Source of the DNA: Escherichia coli | GTDB lineage: Bacteria > Pseudomonadota > Gammaproteobacteria > Enterobacterales > Enterobacteriaceae | DNA length: 64,000 nt | NCBI RefSeq assembly: GCF_045037415.1 | Contig: NZ_CP173438.1 | Strand: one strand, 5' to 3' | Shown here: in pieces, positions 1,127 to 42,815 of the stretch | How the letters are laid out: every line of letters starts with the position of its first letter | Numbering within the stretch: the first letter of the stretch is position 1 | Position numbers and translations under genes: made by a program | The notes under the pieces: model-generated | The model's input: the letters and a program-made list of their open reading frames with translations, nothing else | What the model was told of the DNA's origin: nothing | Databases searched by the model: none

Positions 1127-1585
1127 GTGTCTCAGCTTTGTCCCTGTGGTAGTGCTGTCGAGTATAGCCTATGTTGCCACCCTTATGTGTCTGGTGAAAA
1201 GGTTGCACCTGATCCAGAACATCTCATGCGTTCGCGTTACTGCGCTTTTGTGATGCAAGACGCAGATTATTTAATAAAGACCTGGCATCCATCTTGTGGA
1301 GCAGCGGCGTTACGTGCCGAATTGATTGCCGGATTTGCGCATACTGAATGGTTGGGATTGACCGTATTTGAACATTGCTGGCAGGACGGCGGCGATATCG
1401 GATTTGTCAGTTTTGTTGCTCGATTTACCGAGGGTGGCAAAACAGGTGCAATAATTGAACGTTCGCGATTTTTGAAAGAAAACGGTCAATGGTACTATAT
1501 TGACGGTACACGTCCGCAGTTTGGCCGCAACGATCCCTGCCCTTGTGGTTCAGGTAAAAAATTTAAAAAGTGCTGCGGCCAATAA
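1127..1585 (+). CDS. ychJ: SEC-C motif protein YchJ (UPF0225)
   Basis: ORF 1106..1585; GTG start at 1127 gives (M)[17 protein letters not shown] metal-binding motifs at both termini (C-terminal [13 protein letters not shown]). Confidence 0.85.
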
Positions 1586-1634
1586 TGGTTGACGGTACGG
1601 TTTAGCAAACACTCTCAACAAGGTTTTTCCAGCA

Positions 1635-2477
1635 ATGCATTCACTCCAACGTAAAGTTCTGCGTACTATTTGTCCGGACCAAAAAGGTCTGATCGCACGT
1701 ATTACCAATATTTGCTACAAGCACGAGTTAAATATCGTGCAGAACAATGAATTTGTAGATCATCGTACCGGGCGCTTTTTTATGCGCACGGAACTGGAAG
1801 GGATTTTTAATGATTCCACCCTGCTGGCAGATCTCGATAGCGCATTGCCAGAAGGCTCCGTGCGTGAGCTGAATCCTGCCGGTCGTCGCCGGATAGTGAT
1901 TCTGGTCACTAAAGAAGCACATTGCCTTGGCGATTTGCTGATGAAAGCCAATTACGGCGGCCTGGATGTCGAAATCGCGGCAGTTATTGGTAACCACGAT
2001 AATTTACGTTCTCTGGTTGAGCGTTTTGATATTCCGTTTGAGCTGGTAAGCCATGAAGGGTTAAGCCGCAACGAGCACGATCAAAAGATGGCGGATGCCA
2101 TTGATGCTTATCAACCTGACTATGTGGTGCTGGCGAAGTATATGCGGGTATTAACGCCGGAATTTGTGGCTCGCTTCCCGAATAAGATCATCAATATTCA
2201 CCATTCCTTCCTGCCAGCGTTTATCGGCGCACGTCCTTATCACCAGGCCTATGAGCGTGGCGTGAAGATTATTGGCGCAACCGCTCACTATGTGAATGAC
2301 AATCTGGACGAAGGTCCAATCATCATGCAGGACGTTATTCATGTCGATCATACCTACACAGCTGAAGATATGATGCGCGCAGGTCGTGACGTCGAGAAAA
2401 ACGTCTTAAGTCGTGCGCTATACAAAGTACTGGCGCAGCGCGTCTTTGTTTACGGTAATCGGACGATTATTCTTTAA
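1635..2477 (+). CDS. purU: formyltetrahydrofolate deformylase
   Basis: 280-aa ORF MHSLQRKVLRTICPDQKGLIARITN (ACT domain) followed by a formyltransferase domain; matches PurU in sequence and position next to tyrT. Confidence 0.9.
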   Translation: MHSLQRKVLRTICPDQKGLIARITNICYKHELNIVQNNEFVDHRTGRFFMRTELEGIFNDSTLLADLDSALPEGSVRELNPAGRRRIVILVTKEAHCLGDLLMKANYGGLDVEIAAVIGNHDNLRSLVERFDIPFELVSHEGLSRNEHDQKMADAIDAYQPDYVVLAKYMRVLTPEFVARFPNKIINIHHSFLPAFIGARPYHQAYERGVKIIGATAHYVNDNLDEGPIIMQDVIHVDHTYTAEDMMRAGRDVEKNVLSRALYKVLAQRVFVYGNRTIIL

Positions 2478-2558
2478 TCGTCAGCCAAAATAACTGGTTA
2501 GCTTTAATCCGTTACGGATGAAAATCACGCAACCAGTTCATTTTTCTCAACGTAACAC

Positions 2559-2586
2559 TTTACAGCGGCGCGTCATTTGATATGAT
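2559..2586 (+). promoter_or_regulatory. tyrT promoter (-35 TTTACA, 16-bp spacer, -10 TATGAT, GC-rich discriminator)
   Basis: TTTACA at 2559-2564 and TATGAT at 2581-2586 followed by GCGCCCC, about 50 bp upstream of the mature tRNA 5' end; this is the classical stringently controlled tyrT promoter. Confidence 0.8.
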
Positions 2587-2636
2587 GCGCCCCGCTTCCC
2601 GATAAGGGAGCAGGCCAGTAAAAAGCATTACCCCGT

Positions 2637-2721
<85 letters not shown>

Positions 2722-2737
2722 TCACTCGATTCCATTA

Positions 2738-3829
2738 TCAAACCTTCGGCTTCTCCCCCATTCGCCGTAAAAACTGCTGCTGTAGCCTCAACAAATCCGC
2801 TAACGTCAACAACTGATAATCCAGACCTTGCTGGCTGGCAATTTGCGCAATAATGCGGCTTAGCGCCGAATAATGGCGATGATGCCAGTGAGGAAACAGA
2901 TGATGGGTAAGGTGCAGATTAATCCCACCCAGCCAGTAGCCAAGCCATGCAGGTTGCGGCGTCCAATCAAAGGTGGTAGCAAAGGTATGCGCCAGTCTGC
3001 CCACGGGCATTTTGCCCTCTTCTGGTGGTAACTGCGTATGTCCCTTCGCCCAGTGCGTTCCAATAATCAACGTCACAAAAATCAATGACGCCAGCAGCTG
3101 GCTGAGCAGATAAGTCAGCAGGATGGTCATAAAACTAAAATCAGACAAAAGCCAGGGAATTATCAGACACAGCGCACAATGCGCCAGTTTCCCGGCTAAG
3201 AAATATCCCCAGCCAGCAAAGCCTCGCAGGGCCAGATGTCGCGTGACCGGCGTAAACCCTGCGCGATCGAGCCAGTCCACTACCCAGATATACCAGGGAA
3301 AGGTGAGCGCGGCGACCAGTGGCCAATAGCGATGTTGCTGGCGCATAAAAGGTCGCCACCGTTGCCACGGCGTCTGGCGAAGAATGCCATTTTCTGCTGT
3401 ATCTGGATCGTAAAATTCAATATTGGTAAAACCGTGATGAAAGCGAACGTGGCGCACCCGCCAGCAGTCCGGATCTAGCCCCATAGGAAAAGCAACCCAC
3501 CGGTTAAGCCGGGCATTGGTCTTTTTACCACGCAAAAACGCATCATGCGAAGCGTCATGCACCACATTGACCGCTAACAACATGGCGCAAAACATCATCG
3601 CGAGATACCACAACAGATACAGTCCCCATTGACGTTGAAATAACGCCAGTAAGTAACAGGAGAAACAAGCAATAATCAACACCGCCATTTTGACGAATGC
3701 CCATCCGTCGGCATACCGATGATCGCCTGATTTCGCCAGATAAACTTTCGTACCGCTTTGCAGTTGTTTCACCAGTTGTGGATCATCGGCAGGAAAAGTG
3801 ATTAACCTGTCGGGATTAAACAGGTTCAT
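2738..3829 (-). CDS. membrane fatty-acid desaturase family protein
   Basis: 363-aa ORF with three histidine boxes (HDASHDAF, HVRFHHGF, HLTHHLFPHWHH) and several hydrophobic segments; last gene of the 7-gene operon. Confidence 0.7.
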   Translation of the reverse strand: MNLFNPDRLITFPADDPQLVKQLQSGTKVYLAKSGDHRYADGWAFVKMAVLIIACFSCYLLALFQRQWGLYLLWYLAMMFCAMLLAVNVVHDASHDAFLRGKKTNARLNRWVAFPMGLDPDCWRVRHVRFHHGFTNIEFYDPDTAENGILRQTPWQRWRPFMRQQHRYWPLVAALTFPWYIWVVDWLDRAGFTPVTRHLALRGFAGWGYFLAGKLAHCALCLIIPWLLSDFSFMTILLTYLLSQLLASLIFVTLIIGTHWAKGHTQLPPEEGKMPVGRLAHTFATTFDWTPQPAWLGYWLGGINLHLTHHLFPHWHHRHYSALSRIIAQIASQQGLDYQLLTLADLLRLQQQFLRRMGEKPKV

Positions 3830-4940
3830 ACTGTTTCCTTAGCGATTTACGTCCTACGCCGATTACAAATAACAGGCAATGGGCCAGCAGAATACCCACT
3901 AATCCCTTCCAGAGCAGAGTACTCCATGAACACATATAGACAATAAAATAGAGCAGTGACAACGTCACAGAGCACCACAAAATCATACCCCAATGCTGCC
4001 CGTCGCTCATGCCCCCCAGCGCAACGGAGCCTGCCGCCAGCAGAACAAATAATACGGCTTGCTCGCTGGTAATAAACTCAATGCCATAGCCATATTGTTG
4101 AATGTAGCCAAGCACCAGCATAAACAGCAGGATCACCCCTGCCCCTACCGCCCATGGAGAACTCTGGTAGCGACCTTCAATCGCTTTGCCAAATGAGCAA
4201 AAGCCCATTAAGCGTAAAAATGGCAGATTACTCTCGCGCATCGGGTTACAGGACAAGCGACTATTTTTTACGCCGTAGCCTACGTCGTATTCCGGCCCGG
4301 CACTATACGAACCGAAAAGTTTATCCCACAACAAAAAGGTGCCACCGTAATTGGTATCGGCATATTGCTTTTGATTCAGATGATGGACGCGATGATGCGA
4401 AGGCGTGATCAGCACTTTTTCCAGCCAGCCCAGTTTCGGCGTTAGTGCGTTATGGTTAAAAAATTGCCAACTATAGTGAATAATAGAAACCGCCAAAAAG
4501 ACCTGTAACGGCACACCAAGCATCGCCAGCAGCATAAAAAACGGGATTGAGGTTAACGAGGAGTACCACGAGTTCCGCACGCCTAATGACAGGTTGTAGT
4601 GTTCCCCCTGATGATGCACCACATGTACCGCCCACAGCGGGCGCATTTCGTGATGCCAGCGATGTAGCCAGTAAAAGCCGAAATCCCACGCCAGGATAGT
4701 AAACAACCACAGCAGGATCACCGGCACATTATCAAACAGTCCAAGGCTGAAGTGATTGACCACCAGGCCATAGCAGAGCACTTCCAGGCAGCGAAATAAC
4801 CACAGCATCATATGACCGGAGTTGATATTAAAAATAACGTCCAGCCAGTCCACTTTTTGCCGCCCGGTGAATTGCAACACGCCCGCTTCGGCTAACACCA
4901 ACAGCACCATCGATATGATGGGGAATAATAAATCACTCAT
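3816..4940 (-). CDS. fatty-acid hydroxylase / sterol desaturase superfamily membrane protein
   Basis: 374-aa ORF with histidine motifs HRWHHEMRPLWAVHVVHH and HHRVHH; overlaps both neighbouring genes. Confidence 0.7.
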   Translation of the reverse strand: MSDLLFPIISMVLLVLAEAGVLQFTGRQKVDWLDVIFNINSGHMMLWLFRCLEVLCYGLVVNHFSLGLFDNVPVILLWLFTILAWDFGFYWLHRWHHEMRPLWAVHVVHHQGEHYNLSLGVRNSWYSSLTSIPFFMLLAMLGVPLQVFLAVSIIHYSWQFFNHNALTPKLGWLEKVLITPSHHRVHHLNQKQYADTNYGGTFLLWDKLFGSYSAGPEYDVGYGVKNSRLSCNPMRESNLPFLRLMGFCSFGKAIEGRYQSSPWAVGAGVILLFMLVLGYIQQYGYGIEFITSEQAVLFVLLAAGSVALGGMSDGQHWGMILWCSVTLSLLYFIVYMCSWSTLLWKGLVGILLAHCLLFVIGVGRKSLRKQYEPV

Positions 4941-18531: not shown

Positions 18532-20328
18532 ATGCTTAAACGTTGTCTCTCTCCGCTCACCCTGGTTAATCAGGTTGCGCTTATTGTGTTGCTTTCTACT
18601 GCTATTGGACTGGCAGGGATGGCGGTTTCTGGCTGGCTGGTGCAAGGCGTTCAGGGCAGCGCCCATGCGATCAACAAAGCGGGATCGCTGCGCATGCAAA
18701 GTTACCGTCTGTTGGCAGCAGTGCCATTAAGCGAGAAAGACAAGCCCTTAATTAAAGAGATGGAACAAACAGCATTTAGCGCCGAGTTGACTCGAGCAGC
18801 AGAACGAGACGGGCAACTGGCGCAATTACAGGGTTTACAAGATTACTGGCGTAATGAACTGATCCCTGCACTGATACGTGCACAAAACCGCGAAACGGTG
18901 TCAGCGGATGTCAGCCAGTTTGTTGCCGGGCTTGATCAGCTGGTATCTGGTTTTGATCGCACCACGGAAATGCGCATTGAGACAGTGGTGCTGGTCCATC
19001 GGGTAATGGCGGTATTTATGGCACTTTTACTGGTATTCACTATTATCTGGTTGCGGGCGAGATTGCTACAACCGTGGCGGCAACTGCTGGCAATGGCGAG
19101 TGCCGTCAGCCATCGCGATTTTACCCAACGCGCAAACATCAGCGGGCGCAACGAAATGGCGATGCTTGGAACTGCGTTGAACAATATGTCTGCAGAACTG
19201 GCGGAAAGTTATGCCGTACTTGAGCAGCGGGTTCAGGAGAAAACCGCTGGGCTGGAGCATAAAAATCAGATCCTCTCTTTTTTATGGCAGGCTAACCGCC
19301 GTTTGCATTCCCGCGCCCCGCTGTGTGAACGCCTGTCACCTGTACTCAACGGCTTACAGAATTTAACCCTGCTACGTGATATCGAACTGCGGGTGTATGA
19401 CACTGATGATGAAGAGAATCATCAGGAGTTTACCTGCCAGTCAGATATGACTTGTGATGATAAAGGCTGCCAGCTCTGCCCGCGCGGCGTATTACCCGTT
19501 GGCGATCGCGGCACAACCCTGAAGTGGCGGCTGGCTGACACTCATACGCAGTACGGTATTTTGCTGGCGACCCTGCCGCAGGGGCGTCATCTTAGCCATG
19601 ATCAACAACAACTGGTGGATACCCTGGTTGAACAACTCACCGCCACGCTGGCGCTGGATCGCCATCAGGAACGTCAGCAACAGTTGATCGTGATGGAAGA
19701 GCGTGCCACCATTGCGCGCGAACTGCATGATTCTATTGCCCAATCTCTCTCTTGCATGAAGATGCAGGTGAGTTGCTTACAGATGCAGGGCGATGCGCTG
19801 CCAGAAAGCAGCCGCGAACTGTTAAGTCAGATCCGTAACGAACTGAATGCATCCTGGGTGCAGTTGCGTGAATTGCTCACCACATTCCGTTTGCAGCTCA
19901 CCGAGCCTGGATTACGTCCGGCGCTGGAGGCGAGTTGCGAAGAGTACAGCGCCAAATTTGGCTTCCCGGTGAAGCTGGATTATCAATTGCCGCCTCGTCT
20001 GGTGCCTTCGCATCAGGCAATCCACTTGTTGCAAATTGCCCGTGAGGCATTAAGTAACGCCCTCAAACATTCGCAAGCGAGTGAGGTCGTGGTGACGGTG
20101 GCGCAAAACGATAATCAGGTCAAACTGACCGTCCAGGATAACGGCTGCGGCGTGCCTGAAAATGCCATCCGCAGCAATCACTACGGCATGATAATAATGC
20201 GCGACCGTGCGCAAAGTTTACGAGGCGATTGCCGCGTCCGCCGTCGTGAATCAGGTGGCACCGAAGTGGTGGTCACCTTTATTCCCGAAAAAACTTTCAC
20301 AGACGTCCAAGGAGATACCCATGAGTAA
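18532..20328 (+). CDS. narX: nitrate/nitrite sensor histidine kinase
   Basis: 598-aa ORF with two N-terminal TM segments, a HAMP region, the H-box ([11 protein letters not shown]) and an ATPase domain; stop overlaps the narL start. Confidence 0.95.
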
Positions 20329-20970
20329 TCAGGAACCGGCTACTATCCTGCTGATCGACGATCACCCGATGTTGCGAACTGGCGTAAAACAGCTTATCAG
20401 TATGGCACCAGATATCACTGTGGTTGGCGAAGCGAGTAATGGCGAACAGGGTATTGAACTGGCGGAGTTCTTGATCCCGATCTGATCCTGTTAGATCTCA
20501 ATATGCCCGGCATGAACGGTCTGGAAACGCTGGATAAACTGCGCGAAAAGTCCCTCTCCGGGCGCATTGTGGTATTCAGCGTCTCTAACCATGAAGAAGA
20601 TGTGGTCACCGCACTGAAACGCGGCGCGGATGGCTATCTGTTAAAAGATATGGAACCGGAAGATCTGCTGAAAGCGTTACATCAGGCAGCTGCTGGCGAA
20701 ATGGTATTAAGCGAAGCATTAACGCCTGTTCTGGCCGCCAGCTTGCGCGCTAACCGTGCCACTACTGAGCGCGATGTTAACCAGTTAACCCCACGCGAGC
20801 GCGATATTCTCAAGCTGATTGCCCAGGGTTTGCCGAACAAGATGATTGCCCGCCGCCTGGACATCACCGAAAGCACAGTAAAAGTTCACGTCAAGCACAT
20901 GCTGAAGAAAATGAAGCTAAAGTCTCGCGTGGAAGCTGCGGTATGGGTGCATCAGGAGCGCATTTTCTGA
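20321..20970 (+). pseudogene. narL: nitrate/nitrite response regulator NarL, interrupted by a 1-bp frameshift
   Basis: The ATG at 20321 gives [49 protein letters not shown], then the frame breaks near 20466-20470 (reads GAGTTCTTGAT where TCTCTT is expected from memory of K-12) and hits TGA at 20483; the rest of NarL ([17 protein letters not shown]... to the LuxR HTH) continues in another frame as ORF 20503..20970. Confidence 0.75.
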
Positions 20971-24299: not shown

Positions 24300-25400
24300 A
24301 TGTCAAATGCTCAAGAGGCGGTAAAAACCCGCCACAAGGAGACTTCGCTTATTTTCCCGGTTCTGGCGCTGGTAGTGCTGTTCCTGTGGGGAAGCAGCCA
24401 GACACTACCAGTGGTCATTGCCATCAATCTTCTTGCGCTTATTGGTATTTTAAGTAGCGCCTTTAGTGTTGTCCGTCATGCGGACGTATTAGCCCATCGC
24501 CTGGGAGAACCTTACGGTTCGCTTATTCTTAGCCTTTCAGTGGTTATTCTTGAAGTCAGTTTGATTTCAGCTTTAATGGCAACCGGCGATGCCGCGCCAA
24601 CGCTAATGCGTGATACGCTCTATTCAATCATTATGATTGTTACAGGTGGGCTGGTTGGCTTTTCATTATTGTTGGGCGGACGTAAGTTTGCCACCCAATA
24701 TATGAATCTGTTTGGTATCAAGCAGTATTTAATTGCGCTGTTCCCCCTGGCGATAATCGTACTGGTATTTCCAATGGCTCTGCCTGCGGCGAATTTTTCA
24801 ACAGGTCAGGCGTTACTGGTAGCATTAATTTCTGCGGCAATGTATGGCGTATTTTTGCTGATCCAGACCAAAACGCATCAAAGTTTGTTTGTCTACGAGC
24901 ACGAAGATGACAGTGATGATGACGACCCGCACCACGGTAAACCGTCTGCCCATAGCAGCCTGTGGCATGCCATCTGGTTGATTGTCCATCTGATTGCCGT
25001 TATTGCAGTCACCAAAATGAACGCCAGCCCGCTGGAGACATTGCTCGACAGCATGAATGCGCCTGTCGCCTTTACTGGCTTCCTGGTGGCTCTGTTGATT
25101 CTGTCGCCGGAAGGTTTAGGTGCGTTAAAAGCAGTGTTGAATAACCAGGTCCAGCGCGCGATGAATCTGTTCTTTGGTTCAGTGTTGGCAACCATTTCGC
25201 TTACCGTACCTGTCGTCACGCTAATTGCCTTTATGACGGGTAACGAATTGCAGTTTGCACTTGGTGCGCCAGAAATGGTGGTGATGGTGGCCTCTTTAGT
25301 ACTGTGCCATATCTCCTTCTCCACCGGACGAACTAACGTGCTCAATGGCGCAGCGCATCTGGCACTGTTTGCCGCCTATTTGATGACGATATTTGCCTGA
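24300..25400 (+). CDS. chaA: Ca2+/H+ (Na+/H+) antiporter ChaA
   Basis: ORF 24213..25400; start set at the ATG at 24300 (MSNAQEAVKTRHKETS); polytopic CaCA-family membrane protein, 366 aa. Confidence 0.85.
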   Translation: MSNAQEAVKTRHKETSLIFPVLALVVLFLWGSSQTLPVVIAINLLALIGILSSAFSVVRHADVLAHRLGEPYGSLILSLSVVILEVSLISALMATGDAAPTLMRDTLYSIIMIVTGGLVGFSLLLGGRKFATQYMNLFGIKQYLIALFPLAIIVLVFPMALPAANFSTGQALLVALISAAMYGVFLLIQTKTHQSLFVYEHEDDSDDDDPHHGKPSAHSSLWHAIWLIVHLIAVIAVTKMNASPLETLLDSMNAPVAFTGFLVALLILSPEGLGALKAVLNNQVQRAMNLFFGSVLATISLTVPVVTLIAFMTGNELQFALGAPEMVVMVASLVLCHISFSTGRTNVLNGAAHLALFAAYLMTIFA

Positions 25401-25804
25401 CAGTTATATCTCCTCCGATGACGGAAATCGGGGGAGATAATATAAATTCCTGCTTATTATATTTCTTCATACTAGCTGGACAGGTTGTTAATCAGAATTG
25501 CAAGCCTGTACCACAACCTGCACGAAATGACTGCAACAGCTGTTGAAAAACCGGAATGTACTCTTTATTGCAAACATTTCAGGGATGAAGTGAAGATGAA
25601 TTGCGACGTAGTATCCACACCAAGCCGGCGTTATCCGGTGAGGCGCAATGTTGCGGGGGCTTTATCCCTGGTGGCATTGGTTGCTGGAAAGAGAAAACCC
25701 CCGCACGTTGAGAGGTACAACCTGACAACAGAACGGGGGCTAATCTTGAACCAGAACAATTCAAGAATAGCCGCAAAATGTTGTCATTACAACAAGGCGG
25801 CTAT

Positions 25805-25912
25805 ATGACGCTCGCGCAGTTTGCCATGATTTTCTGGCACAACCTGGCGGCACCGATCCTGGCGGGGATTATTACCGCAGTGATTGTCAGCTGGTGGCGT
25901 AACCGGAAGTAA
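25805..25912 (+). CDS. ldr: type I toxin Ldr (small membrane peptide)
   Basis: 35-codon ORF, below the ORF-track cutoff, read by eye: MTLAQFAMIFWHNLAAPILAGIITAVIVSWWRNRK; the Ldr family lies between chaA and kdsA in K-12; the cognate Rdl antisense RNA is expected just upstream on the minus strand but was not delimited. Confidence 0.8.
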   Translation: MTLAQFAMIFWHNLAAPILAGIITAVIVSWWRNRK

Positions 25913-26060
25913 GGTGAAAACGGGCGTCAGGCTGCCGTGATGGCAATATGCGCCCGAAACCGGCCGCAGGGGTAACAGCCTGCGGCCTTTTTTGTATCCG
26001 GCACCCATGAAAAAAGTCTTAACGCAGAACGCTAAGACTTTATTTTTCAGGCAAAAAAGA

Positions 26061-26924
<864 letters not shown>

Positions 26925-40191: not shown

Positions 40192-40546
40192 ATGTGTCGG
40201 GTTCTGAAGGTCGCCCGTGCGGGATTTTACGTCTGGCTTCATCGCCCTGTTTCTGCCGGAGAAAAGGATAATCAGCGGTTGCTGGAGCTCATCCGCGATG
40301 CTTATGCACTGAGCGGCGGAGTCTACGGTTATCGCAGGGTTCACGGCGATCTTCGTGAAATCGGTGAAGTATGCAGCAGAAACCGTGTTGCCAGAATCAT
40401 GAAGCGGAACAGGATACAGGCCGTACATGGCTATAAGGTCCCGCGTGGCGTCAGGGGAAGGCCGTCACTGATAGCTCCTAATCGCGTACAGAGGGAATTT
40501 ACGATGGTAAAACCCAACCAGGTGTGGGTGACTGATATTACCTACA
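40192..40546 (+). pseudogene. IS3-family transposase OrfB, 5' exon (interrupted by the group II intron)
   Basis: Reading frame through ...KPNQVWVTDITY ends at the intron 5' boundary at 40547; the last residues of the 139-aa ORF in the track are intron-encoded. Confidence 0.75.
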
Positions 40547-42815
40547 GTGTGCCCGGAGTTCAGGGCGGGCATGGATGCTTAAATGAACCGCGAGTCTGTC
40601 TGGAATATTGAGCCGGTAACTCACGATGAGAAACCCAACAATCCCACCGGGTGTGACGGTGGAGAACCTGAGCGGCAGTGACCTGCGGCATGCCCGCAGG
40701 GTGATGTAACCCGCTGACAACGGGGATTGAGGCGAGATCACTAAGCCGAGATGATCCTCAAGGTTAAGTACTGAAAGGCTGAAGAACATGAACCCGTTAA
40801 TCCGCCTCTGTGGGTTGAAAACGTCACCACGGCCTACGTGATCTGACAGGCCGTGCAGGAGGAACTGGCAGTGATACGTAAGCACTGCCGGTCGAAGGTG
40901 TTTTGACATGTATGCGAAACACCGGGGCAGCAGCGTCTATCACGCTTGCGTTGCTGACTTCTGCCAACTTGCGGCAAGCAAGGATAAAGAGTGCGACGGG
41001 CAGCCTCCTCAGTATGCCTGAGTCCAGGCAGGTAAACCGGGGAAGGTCAGCGACGGATGTTAAGGGGGCATGGCTCCGATGACGCGCTGGCTGGCGGAGC
41101 TTCCGTAGTAGTCCGCGATGGGGAAAGCCCATTACATGGCGAAGGGAAGCAGTTTGAATGTGTTTGCGACGTGAATTAACTGACCTAACGAGGTGAAGAC
41201 CTTTGATAATCAGCGAAATGCAACGCAAGCTTGCCACATGGGCAGTCACCGATCCGTCCCTACGGATTCAACGGCTGCTGCGTCTGATAACACAACCAGA
41301 ATGGCTGGCTGAAGCGGCGCGGATCACGCTTTCATCAAAGGGGGCCCATACCCCCGGCGTTGATGGCGTGAACAAAACAATGCTACAGGCCAGACTGGCT
41401 GTTGAGCTGCAAATCCTCAGGGATGAATTACTCTCAGGCCACTACCAGCCCTTGCCCGCCAGACGGGTTTACATCCCTAAAAGCAACGGCAAACTGCGAC
41501 CACTGGGTATCCCCGCGTTGCGGGATCGTATTGTTCAGCGGGCCATGCTGATGGCGATGGAGCCGATATGGGAGAGTGATTTTCATACGCTCTCATATGG
41601 CTTCCGGCCTGAGCGCAGTGTCCACCACGCGATCCGCACGGTGAAATTACAGCTCACAGACTGTGGTGAAACCCGGGGACGCTGGGTGATTGAAGGCGAC
41701 CTGTCCAGTTACTTCGACACCGTACATCATCGACTGCTGATGAAGGCTGTACGCCGCAGGATCAGTGACGCACGTTTCATGACTCTGCTGTGGAAAACCA
41801 TCAAGGCGGGACATATCGATGTCGGTCTCTTTCGGGCGGCCAGTGAAGGTGTGCCACAGGGCGGTGTTATATCGCCGCTATTATCGAACATCATGCTGAA
41901 TGAGTTCGATCAATACCTGCATGAGCGCTACCTGAGCGGGAAAGCCAGAAAAGATCGGTGGTACTGGAATAACAGTATCCAACGGGGCCGAAGTACGGCG
42001 GTCAGAGAAAACTGGCAGTGGAAACCCGCGGTGGCGTACTGCCGCTATGCCGATGATTTTGTCCTCATCGTCAAAGGCACCAAAGCACAGGCGGAAGCCA
42101 TCAGGGAGGAGTGTCGGGGTGTGCTCGAAGGCAGTCTGAAACTCAGGCTGAACATGGATAAGACTAAAATCACCCATGTTAATGACGGCTTTATCTTTCT
42201 GGGGCACAGGATCATTCGCAAACGCAGTCGTTATGGCGAGATGCGAGTGGTTCAACGATCCCGCAGGAGAAAGCCAGAAACTTCGCCGCATCGCTGACAG
42301 CACTGTTATCAGGCAACTACAGTGAAAGCAAAGTCGATATGGCTGAACAACTCAACCGAAAACTGAAAGGCTGGGCCATGTTCTATCAGTTCGTTGATTT
42401 TAAGGCCAAAGTCTTCAGTTATATCGACCGTGTCGTGTTCTGGAAGCTGGCTCACTGGCTGGCCCGCAAATACCGTACAGGTATCGCTTCCCTGATGAGG
42501 TGGTGGTGTAAATCACCGAAACCGGGTCAGAGCAAAACGTGGGTTTTATTTGGTAAAACCAATCACGGCAAGCTCAGCGGCGAAATACTGTACCGGTTGG
42601 TGGGGCAAGGCAAGAAGCTGTTCCGCTGGCGGCTACCCGAAGGTAATCCCTATCTGAGGACGGAGACCAGAAACACGTATACATCGCGCTTTACAGAAGT
42701 GGCAATGGCGTTCGCCAGCATTTAAATGGAGAGCCGGATGCGCTGAAAGGTGCACGTCCGGTTCGGGGAGGAGAGGCAGGGAAATAGTCCGACTACGCCC
42801 TGCCTCTTACTCTAC
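40547..42815 (+). mobile_element. group II intron (2269 bp) inserted in IS3-family orfB
   Basis: Starts GTGTG (GUGYG-like) and ends ...CTAC (AY); removing 40547-42815 restores a continuous OrfB reading ...VTDITYIRTWQGWLYLAVVIDLF...; encodes an RT/maturase. Confidence 0.8.
41203..42725 (+). pseudogene. group II intron-encoded reverse transcriptase/maturase, frameshifted between the RT and X domains
   Basis: RT-domain ORF 41203..42297 (motifs RPLGIPALRDRIVQ, YADDFVLIV) and maturase-domain ORF 42339..42725 (LNRKLKGWAMFY) are in different frames; the X-domain frame stays open upstream through ...STIPQEKARNFAASL, placing the shift near 42250-42260. Confidence 0.75.

Follow-up and report, generated by a model that had tools for sequence, protein, structure and literature searches.

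Ldr peptides are single-pass inner-membrane proteins; when they are overproduced, ATP synthesis is blocked and the cell stops growing or dies (PMC4147584, PMC12643268). Their toxicity and the repression of ldr translation by the antisense RNA Rdl have been published (PMC4147584), LdrA has been described as an inner-membrane toxin that blocks ATP synthesis (PMC12643268), and toxicity on overproduction is documented for both LdrD/RdlD and LdrA of Escherichia coli K-12 (PMC4147584, PMC12643268). A coupling of ldr to a leader ORF, named 'ldrX', has been proposed as a hypothesis by analogy to mok/hok/sok (PMC4147584). Lineage-specific duplications and losses of Ldr genes, with differences in number between strains, were reported in 2010, and Ldr/Fst counts vary from 2 to 10 per genome across enterobacteria (PMC2887945).

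The experimentally characterised founding member of the family, ldrD/rdlD (LDR-D), is located between bcsG and yhjV in K-12. A preceding sequence-only reading of the DNA studied here had stated that K-12 carries three tandem copies at a further site, and ldrA/rdlA, ldrB/rdlB and ldrC/rdlC are indeed found between kdsA and chaA, in the order ldrC, ldrB, ldrA from chaA to kdsA. The K-12 units are 475 bp long, 96-98% identical and joined by a 60-bp spacer. Both the family and this tandem layout in K-12 are published (PMC4147584, PMC2887945).

Several other families share parts of this organization. In hok/mok/sok, as in LDR, the small membrane toxin is preceded by a long structured leader, and the antisense RNA binds upstream of the toxin ribosome-binding site (RBS), but the toxin belongs to an unrelated family. 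The ibs/sib and zor/orz systems resemble LDR in that toxin and antisense modules are repeated in one intergenic region, with strain differences in copy number (PMC2887945, PMC11264685), although their toxins and RNAs are different. Copy numbers have been surveyed in a comparable way for zor/orz and tisB, and antitoxin-only loci are common for zor/orz (PMC11264685), whereas the LDR locus described here has both toxin and antitoxin.

A single LDR module between chaA and kdsA

We analyzed a 64,000-nucleotide stretch of the E. coli contig NZ_CP173438.1, referred to below as the window. The locus is flanked on the left by chaA, encoding the Na+/K+:H+ antiporter (24300-25400, plus strand; Pfam Na_Ca_ex; annotated as chaA by RefSeq in the identical regions of EC958 and SK1144), and on the right by kdsA (26061-26915, minus strand; Pfam DAHP_synth_1, E 1.2e-71; RefSeq annotation of identical genomes). 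The gap from the chaA stop (25400, plus) to the kdsA stop (26061, minus) covers 25401-26060, i.e., 660 bp, and contains a sole LDR unit of 475 bp (25521-25995, plus strand), which blastn places at 96.2-97.9% identity to each of the three K-12 units. The sequence-only reading had noted one 35-codon Ldr-type ORF in this interval, at 25805-25912, and Pfam Ldr_toxin, Rfam rdlD and the copy searches all support that count. That reading would have been overturned by additional ldr copies, so we searched the entire 64 kb for a second ldr or rdl in four ways, and none was found. A 35-nt ldr pattern with 3 mismatches allowed matched the whole window once against 0 expected, Rfam gave a single rdlD match over all 64 kb, and blastn of the 475-bp unit against the window recovered one copy and no second. 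Finally, in tblastn searches of the window with LdrA-, LdrB- and LdrD-type peptides the next best hit had an E value of ~0.02, which is noise. The single-copy Ldr observation far exceeds chance.

The toxin gene ldr (25805-25912, plus strand) encodes 35 amino acids plus a stop, and its product is MTLAQFAMIFWHNLAAPILAGIITAVIVSWWRNRK. All 35 residues align to positions 1-35 of Pfam PF13940 Ldr_toxin (E 5.5e-23, 81 bits against a cut-off of 27), and the peptide shows the hydrophobic character, conserved Trp and basic C-terminus of the family. The same protein, WP_001531632.1, is found in EC958 and SK1144, and RefSeq already annotates it as an Ldr family toxin for ldr in ST131. It is 94% identical to K-12 LdrA (33/35 residues), with N13 and V26 in place of D13 and A26. 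Downstream, a 9-bp GC-rich stem followed by TTTTTT (25962-25995, plus strand; fold of -23.6 kcal/mol) was identified by a terminator scan as the ldr intrinsic terminator and forms the right end of the repeat unit.

On the opposite strand, the unit carries the antisense antitoxin RNA Rdl (66 nt; 25692-25757, minus strand), which matches Rfam RF01813 rdlD from model position 1 to 66 of 66 with 86.3 bits (gathering threshold 50). Rdl is complementary to the ldr 5' UTR from 48 to 113 nt upstream of the ldr AUG, so that the RBS and the AUG are not covered, and the cis-encoded ~66-nt antisense RNA opposite the 5' UTR that characterizes the LDR family is thus present. Its predicted fold (-26.7 kcal/mol, z -4.6) consists of a terminator hairpin and a free 5' tail, and the terminator scan also found the terminator-like stem at 25716-25697 with a T-run that ends Rdl.

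Both promoters were assigned by inspection. The sequence-only reading had proposed to look for the Rdl promoter on the minus strand within about 25600-25800, and we located a candidate there, at 25764-25792, upstream of the Rfam-defined 5' end at 25757, with a -35 element TTGTAA (25792-25787), a 17-nt spacer and a -10 element TATTCT (25769-25764), and a predicted transcription start at 25757. Its hexamers have 8/12 matches and are both kept across 12 aligned units from two genera. For the ldr mRNA, a weak match reading TTGCAA, 18 nt, GAAGAT (25568-25597, plus strand) is a candidate promoter, with a putative transcription start near 25605 that is suggested by the sequence and by where between-genus conservation begins; conservation of LDR units between genera turns tight from ~25606, where the sequence reads ACGTAG. 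A sigma-70 scan of 25380-26080 requiring at least 9/12 matches gave no promoter for ldr or Rdl, in keeping with both inspected candidates falling below that threshold. Each transcript thus has its own terminator and a sub-threshold promoter candidate.

Taken together, these parts suggest how the module might work. A long-leader mRNA, from about 25605 to 25995, would encode the 35-aa inner-membrane toxin Ldr, while Rdl (66 nt) would be transcribed from the other strand by a promoter of its own. Rdl would base-pair to a leader segment far upstream of the ldr RBS and the toxin would stay untranslated, the block probably acting via a leader ORF or via refolding of the leader. The N13/V26 Ldr of the window is a predicted toxin that Rdl would repress, the published demonstrations being those for LdrD/RdlD and LdrA of K-12.

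Two leader ORFs are candidates for such a role. The first (25648-25725, plus strand; 25 aa, from the ORF list) has a strong Shine-Dalgarno sequence, GAGGCGCAATG, and its 3' end lies within the Rdl target. The start codon and Shine-Dalgarno sequence are kept in 12/12 units compared, Pseudocitrobacter included, but the peptide is frameshifted in K-12 ldrC. The second, found by a scripted ORF search (25746-25808, plus strand; TTG start, 20 aa), begins within the Rdl target and ends in a TGA that shares bases with the ldr ATG (ATGA). A 1-nt indel disrupts this frame in 5/10 Escherichia units, and Pseudocitrobacter lacks the frame, which is thus not conserved. As peptides, neither candidate is conserved across all units. 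In this respect LDR departs from hok/mok/sok: the ORF whose stop overlaps the toxin start is not conserved from unit to unit, and leader-ORF regulation of ldr is hypothetical.

A separate observation concerns the sense strand of the leader, where Rfam RF01794 'sok antitoxin (CssrC)' aligns over its full length (1-157) at 25655-25807 and stops precisely at the ldr AUG. With only 31.4 bits against a gathering threshold of 59, the match was set aside as evidence; a leader architecture common to both systems or a mixture of seed sequences within that Rfam family may account for it.

Two further hairpins lie outside the repeat. Directly after the chaA stop, a 13-bp hairpin (25407-25439, plus strand; fold of 25398-25460, -21.2 kcal/mol, z -3.7) is a probable chaA 3' end structure; it has no T-run after it and its function as a terminator is presumptive. 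On the other side, a hairpin with TTTTTT (26005-26051, minus strand; fold of 26000-26062 on the minus strand, -20 kcal/mol, z -4.4) is the kdsA terminator.

A solitary copy might also be a decaying remnant that has lost its toxin-antitoxin function. Decay does happen at this site, as the ldr of Pseudocitrobacter vendiensis has an in-frame stop (W30*), and the ldr promoter match in the window is weak. However, the ldr ORF is intact and full-length on the Pfam model, Rdl matches its Rfam model from 1 to 66 with the stems kept, the terminators are intact and the sequence is invariant across ST131, which together make a remnant very unlikely.

Relationship to the K-12 array and copy number across E. 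coli

The chaA-kdsA intergenic region measures 1,729 bp in K-12 versus 660 bp in the window, and the difference of 1,069 bp corresponds to two units of 534-535 bp. Alignment to the K-12 region, which the sequence-only reading had named as one way to check its claim, showed that the window is short by exactly two ~535-bp units, with clean junctions and no scar; neither the K-12 60-bp inter-unit spacer nor a remnant of it is present in the window. The layout runs from a chaA flank as found at K-12 ldrC, through one unit, to a kdsA flank as found at K-12 ldrA. The locus is therefore not a tandem array of the ldrABC type, which comprises at least two ~535-bp units and the 60-bp spacer; having at least two tandem units defines such an array, not membership in the toxin-antitoxin family.

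The nearest relative of the window unit is the kdsA-proximal ldrA/rdlA of K-12 (LDR-A), with which it shares the locus and the right junction, and to which it is 97.9% identical, the closest of the K-12 units. The two have an identical gene layout (long 5' UTR, antisense Rdl and terminator) and the same variants in the Rdl 5' tail and loop (GAACCA-GAACAATTC, GGTA-C). Unlike K-12 ldrA, however, the window unit is solitary, abuts the chaA flank without a 60-bp spacer and encodes a toxin with D13N and A26V. The K-12 ldrD/rdlD module at bcsG-yhjV belongs to the same family and has the same architecture, and the Rfam rdlD model aligns in full length to the window. All 35 residues of LdrD align with the window Ldr, but with 54% peptide and ~81% DNA identity, and the locus and the subgroup are different.

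When the LDR units were aligned, their differences clustered in the single-stranded 5' tail of Rdl (25741-25759), which occurs in three variants: GAACCA-GAACAA, GAAACC-AGACAC and GAACCATCAACAA. Pairing with the cognate mRNA is expected to begin in this tail, and the variation there hints at copy-specific recognition, as has been described for Sib/Ibs.

A second tandem-copy difference from K-12 lies within the same window, beside the LDR locus: tRNA-Tyr(GUA) is represented by one gene (2637-2721, plus strand), compared with the tandem tyrT-tyrV of K-12, which has a 294-bp period. No tandem repeat was detected within positions 1500-4500 of the window. Elsewhere in the window, we observed a group II intron (41203-42815, plus strand; Rfam Intron_gpII at 42729-42815, 64.9 bits) whose encoded protein is split into a reverse transcriptase ORF (41203-42297, RVT_1) and a maturase-domain ORF (42339-42725, GIIM), adjoined by an IS3-type HTH_21 ORF (40192-40611).

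To place the single copy in the population, we surveyed 5,426 complete E. coli genomes with a query in which the repeat is flanked by unique sequence on either side and which is covered in one piece only if the locus is single-copy. One copy at chaA-kdsA was found in 1,331/5,426 genomes (24.5%), while 4,066/5,426 (74.9%) had two to seven copies, as judged by at least one K-12-type spacer; the two classes together account for 99.5% of the sample. In the multi-copy class, 1-6 inter-unit spacers, equivalent to 2-7 copies, were counted, with a median of two spacers or three copies. The full-coverage matches that we sampled were all genuine single copies, two of them with an IS insertion. We also noted IS200C, ISApl1 and IS1A inserted in or beside LDR units at both LDR loci in several strains, and ~29 LDR matches that are plasmid-borne.

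The 16 kb around the locus agree with O25b:H4-ST131 genomes such as EC958, JJ1886 and JJ1887 in every base but one, which is missing in narL, and identity reaches at least 99% in 566-598 records. The missing base lies at window position 20468-20469 when compared with EC958 and other ST131 genomes (GGAGTCTCTTG -> GGAGTTCTTG), and its loss splits the gene of the nitrate response regulator into ORFs 20207-20485 and 20503-20970. This 1-bp deletion is absent from all 5,426 complete E. coli genomes (best match 99.5% over 200 bp); it represents either an inactivating mutation private to this genome or an error of sequencing.

Short-read assemblies can collapse tandem repeats of ~535 bp, and the narL deletion unique to the window could be a sequencing error, both of which would be in line with the single copy being an artefact of assembly. 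However, hundreds of independently finished ST131 genomes, among them EC958, JJ1886 and JJ1887, have this single-copy structure with 100% identity over 860-1,260 bp, and collapse during assembly can therefore be practically discounted. The single copy is a fixed allele of ST131 and not an event peculiar to this genome.

The sequence-only reading had attributed the single copy to recombination between long direct repeats. Its copy-number variation is upheld, as copy number changes in whole-unit steps from one to seven among the 5,426 genomes, a pattern that fits unequal homologous recombination between the repeats; the mechanism itself is what we infer, from sequence comparison. Direct observation covers the parts of the module and their intactness, the difference of exactly two units, and how often each copy state occurs in the population. 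Overall, we consider it highly probable (roughly 0.88) that the window carries one complete LDR module as one allele of a recombining locus built from ~535-bp units, and that this allele is the fixed state of ST131.

Ancestry of the single-copy allele

A separate issue is whether ST131 once had more copies and lost them or never had more than one. We tentatively favor the single copy of ST131 as a secondary collapse of an older array over a never-duplicated ancestor, on the basis of the sequence comparisons below. Under the other scenario, which is possible but which we hold to be less probable, ST131 kept an ancestral copy that was never duplicated, and arrays of the K-12 type are later amplifications, possibly spread by recombination. 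Phylogroup B2 is usually seen as an early-branching phylogroup of E. coli, which would agree with such retention. So would the order chaA, one ldr, kdsA in both Pseudocitrobacter faecalis and P. vendiensis, members of an outgroup genus, and the single copy of the divergent Escherichia lineage E69. Against it stands Escherichia sp. E1V33, a strain of a cryptic clade outside E. coli with a chaA of 89.6% identity. This strain carries an array of two copies, and the right half of its spacer is 94% identical to the K-12 inter-unit spacer; as E1V33 and K-12 have this part of the spacer in common, arrays predate the diversification of E. coli.

The spacer offers a second line of evidence against retention of a never-duplicated copy. 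It is ~50% identical to the left flank of the first copy, a score that was reached by 21/2,000 shuffles, and this weak but non-random resemblance points to a very old duplication, after which the 475-bp core would have been kept similar by conversion or selection. As to its origin, we found no match for the K-12 inter-unit spacer at LdrD loci or elsewhere, beyond this weak similarity to the first-copy left flank.

Strain DLL7555 argues in the same direction, since its chaA and kdsA flanks are 99.3-99.4% identical to those of ST131 while its single unit is only 93.3% identical, indicating that units turn over even among close relatives. Its single LDR unit resembles the second copy of the cryptic-clade E1V33, and the comparison suggests an allele replacement confined to the repeat in this strain.

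In the ST131 unit, first-, middle- and last-copy alleles are mixed, with ldrC-, ldrB- and ldrA-type alleles all found in the left 80 bp of the window unit, and we counted this mixture toward collapse. A pattern of first-copy alleles on the left and last-copy alleles on the right was also considered as a decisive test of collapse and was rejected, as the pattern alternates when the unit is compared with 20AR0192 and E1V33. The comparison with K-12 looked suggestive, with last-copy alleles at each of the nine rightmost diagnostic sites, but six of these sites belong to a single linked cluster and others are private changes of ldrC. Outgroups were sought by scanning species-representative genomes with an exact 22-base rdl pattern, which gave 9 loci and did not recover Salmonella, E. 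fergusonii, Shigella or Citrobacter, so that the ancestral state rests on few taxa.

The second LDR locus and implications for the family

At bcsG-yhjV, LdrD-type genes occur as a tandem triplet with a period of 483 bp in the ST131 strain U13A, whereas K-12 has one (ldrD/rdlD). The total is four ldr genes in both, made up of one at chaA-kdsA and three at bcsG-yhjV in ST131 and of three and one in K-12, and the species median is also 4 LDR matches per genome. These reciprocal counts could be read as selection acting on how many Ldr/Rdl modules a genome carries in all, a loss at one locus being offset by a gain at the other, as opposed to independent neutral turnover. We regard selection on dosage as unlikely; the LDR totals of sampled genomes range from 2 to 6 in the single-copy and multi-copy classes alike, which argues against strict compensation.

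Altogether, the locus is a real, intact and already known type I toxin-antitoxin module, and its copy-number polymorphism is common and documented in kind. As a textbook module annotated by RefSeq in ST131, it carries little weight beyond bookkeeping. Three points nevertheless bear on how the family is viewed: in ST131 copy number at the second LDR locus departs from K-12 in the direction opposite to that at chaA-kdsA; the variation among units is concentrated in the 5' tail of Rdl, which is expected to set cognate recognition; and, as a quarter of complete E. coli genomes are single-copy here, the three-copy array of K-12 is a poor reference state.
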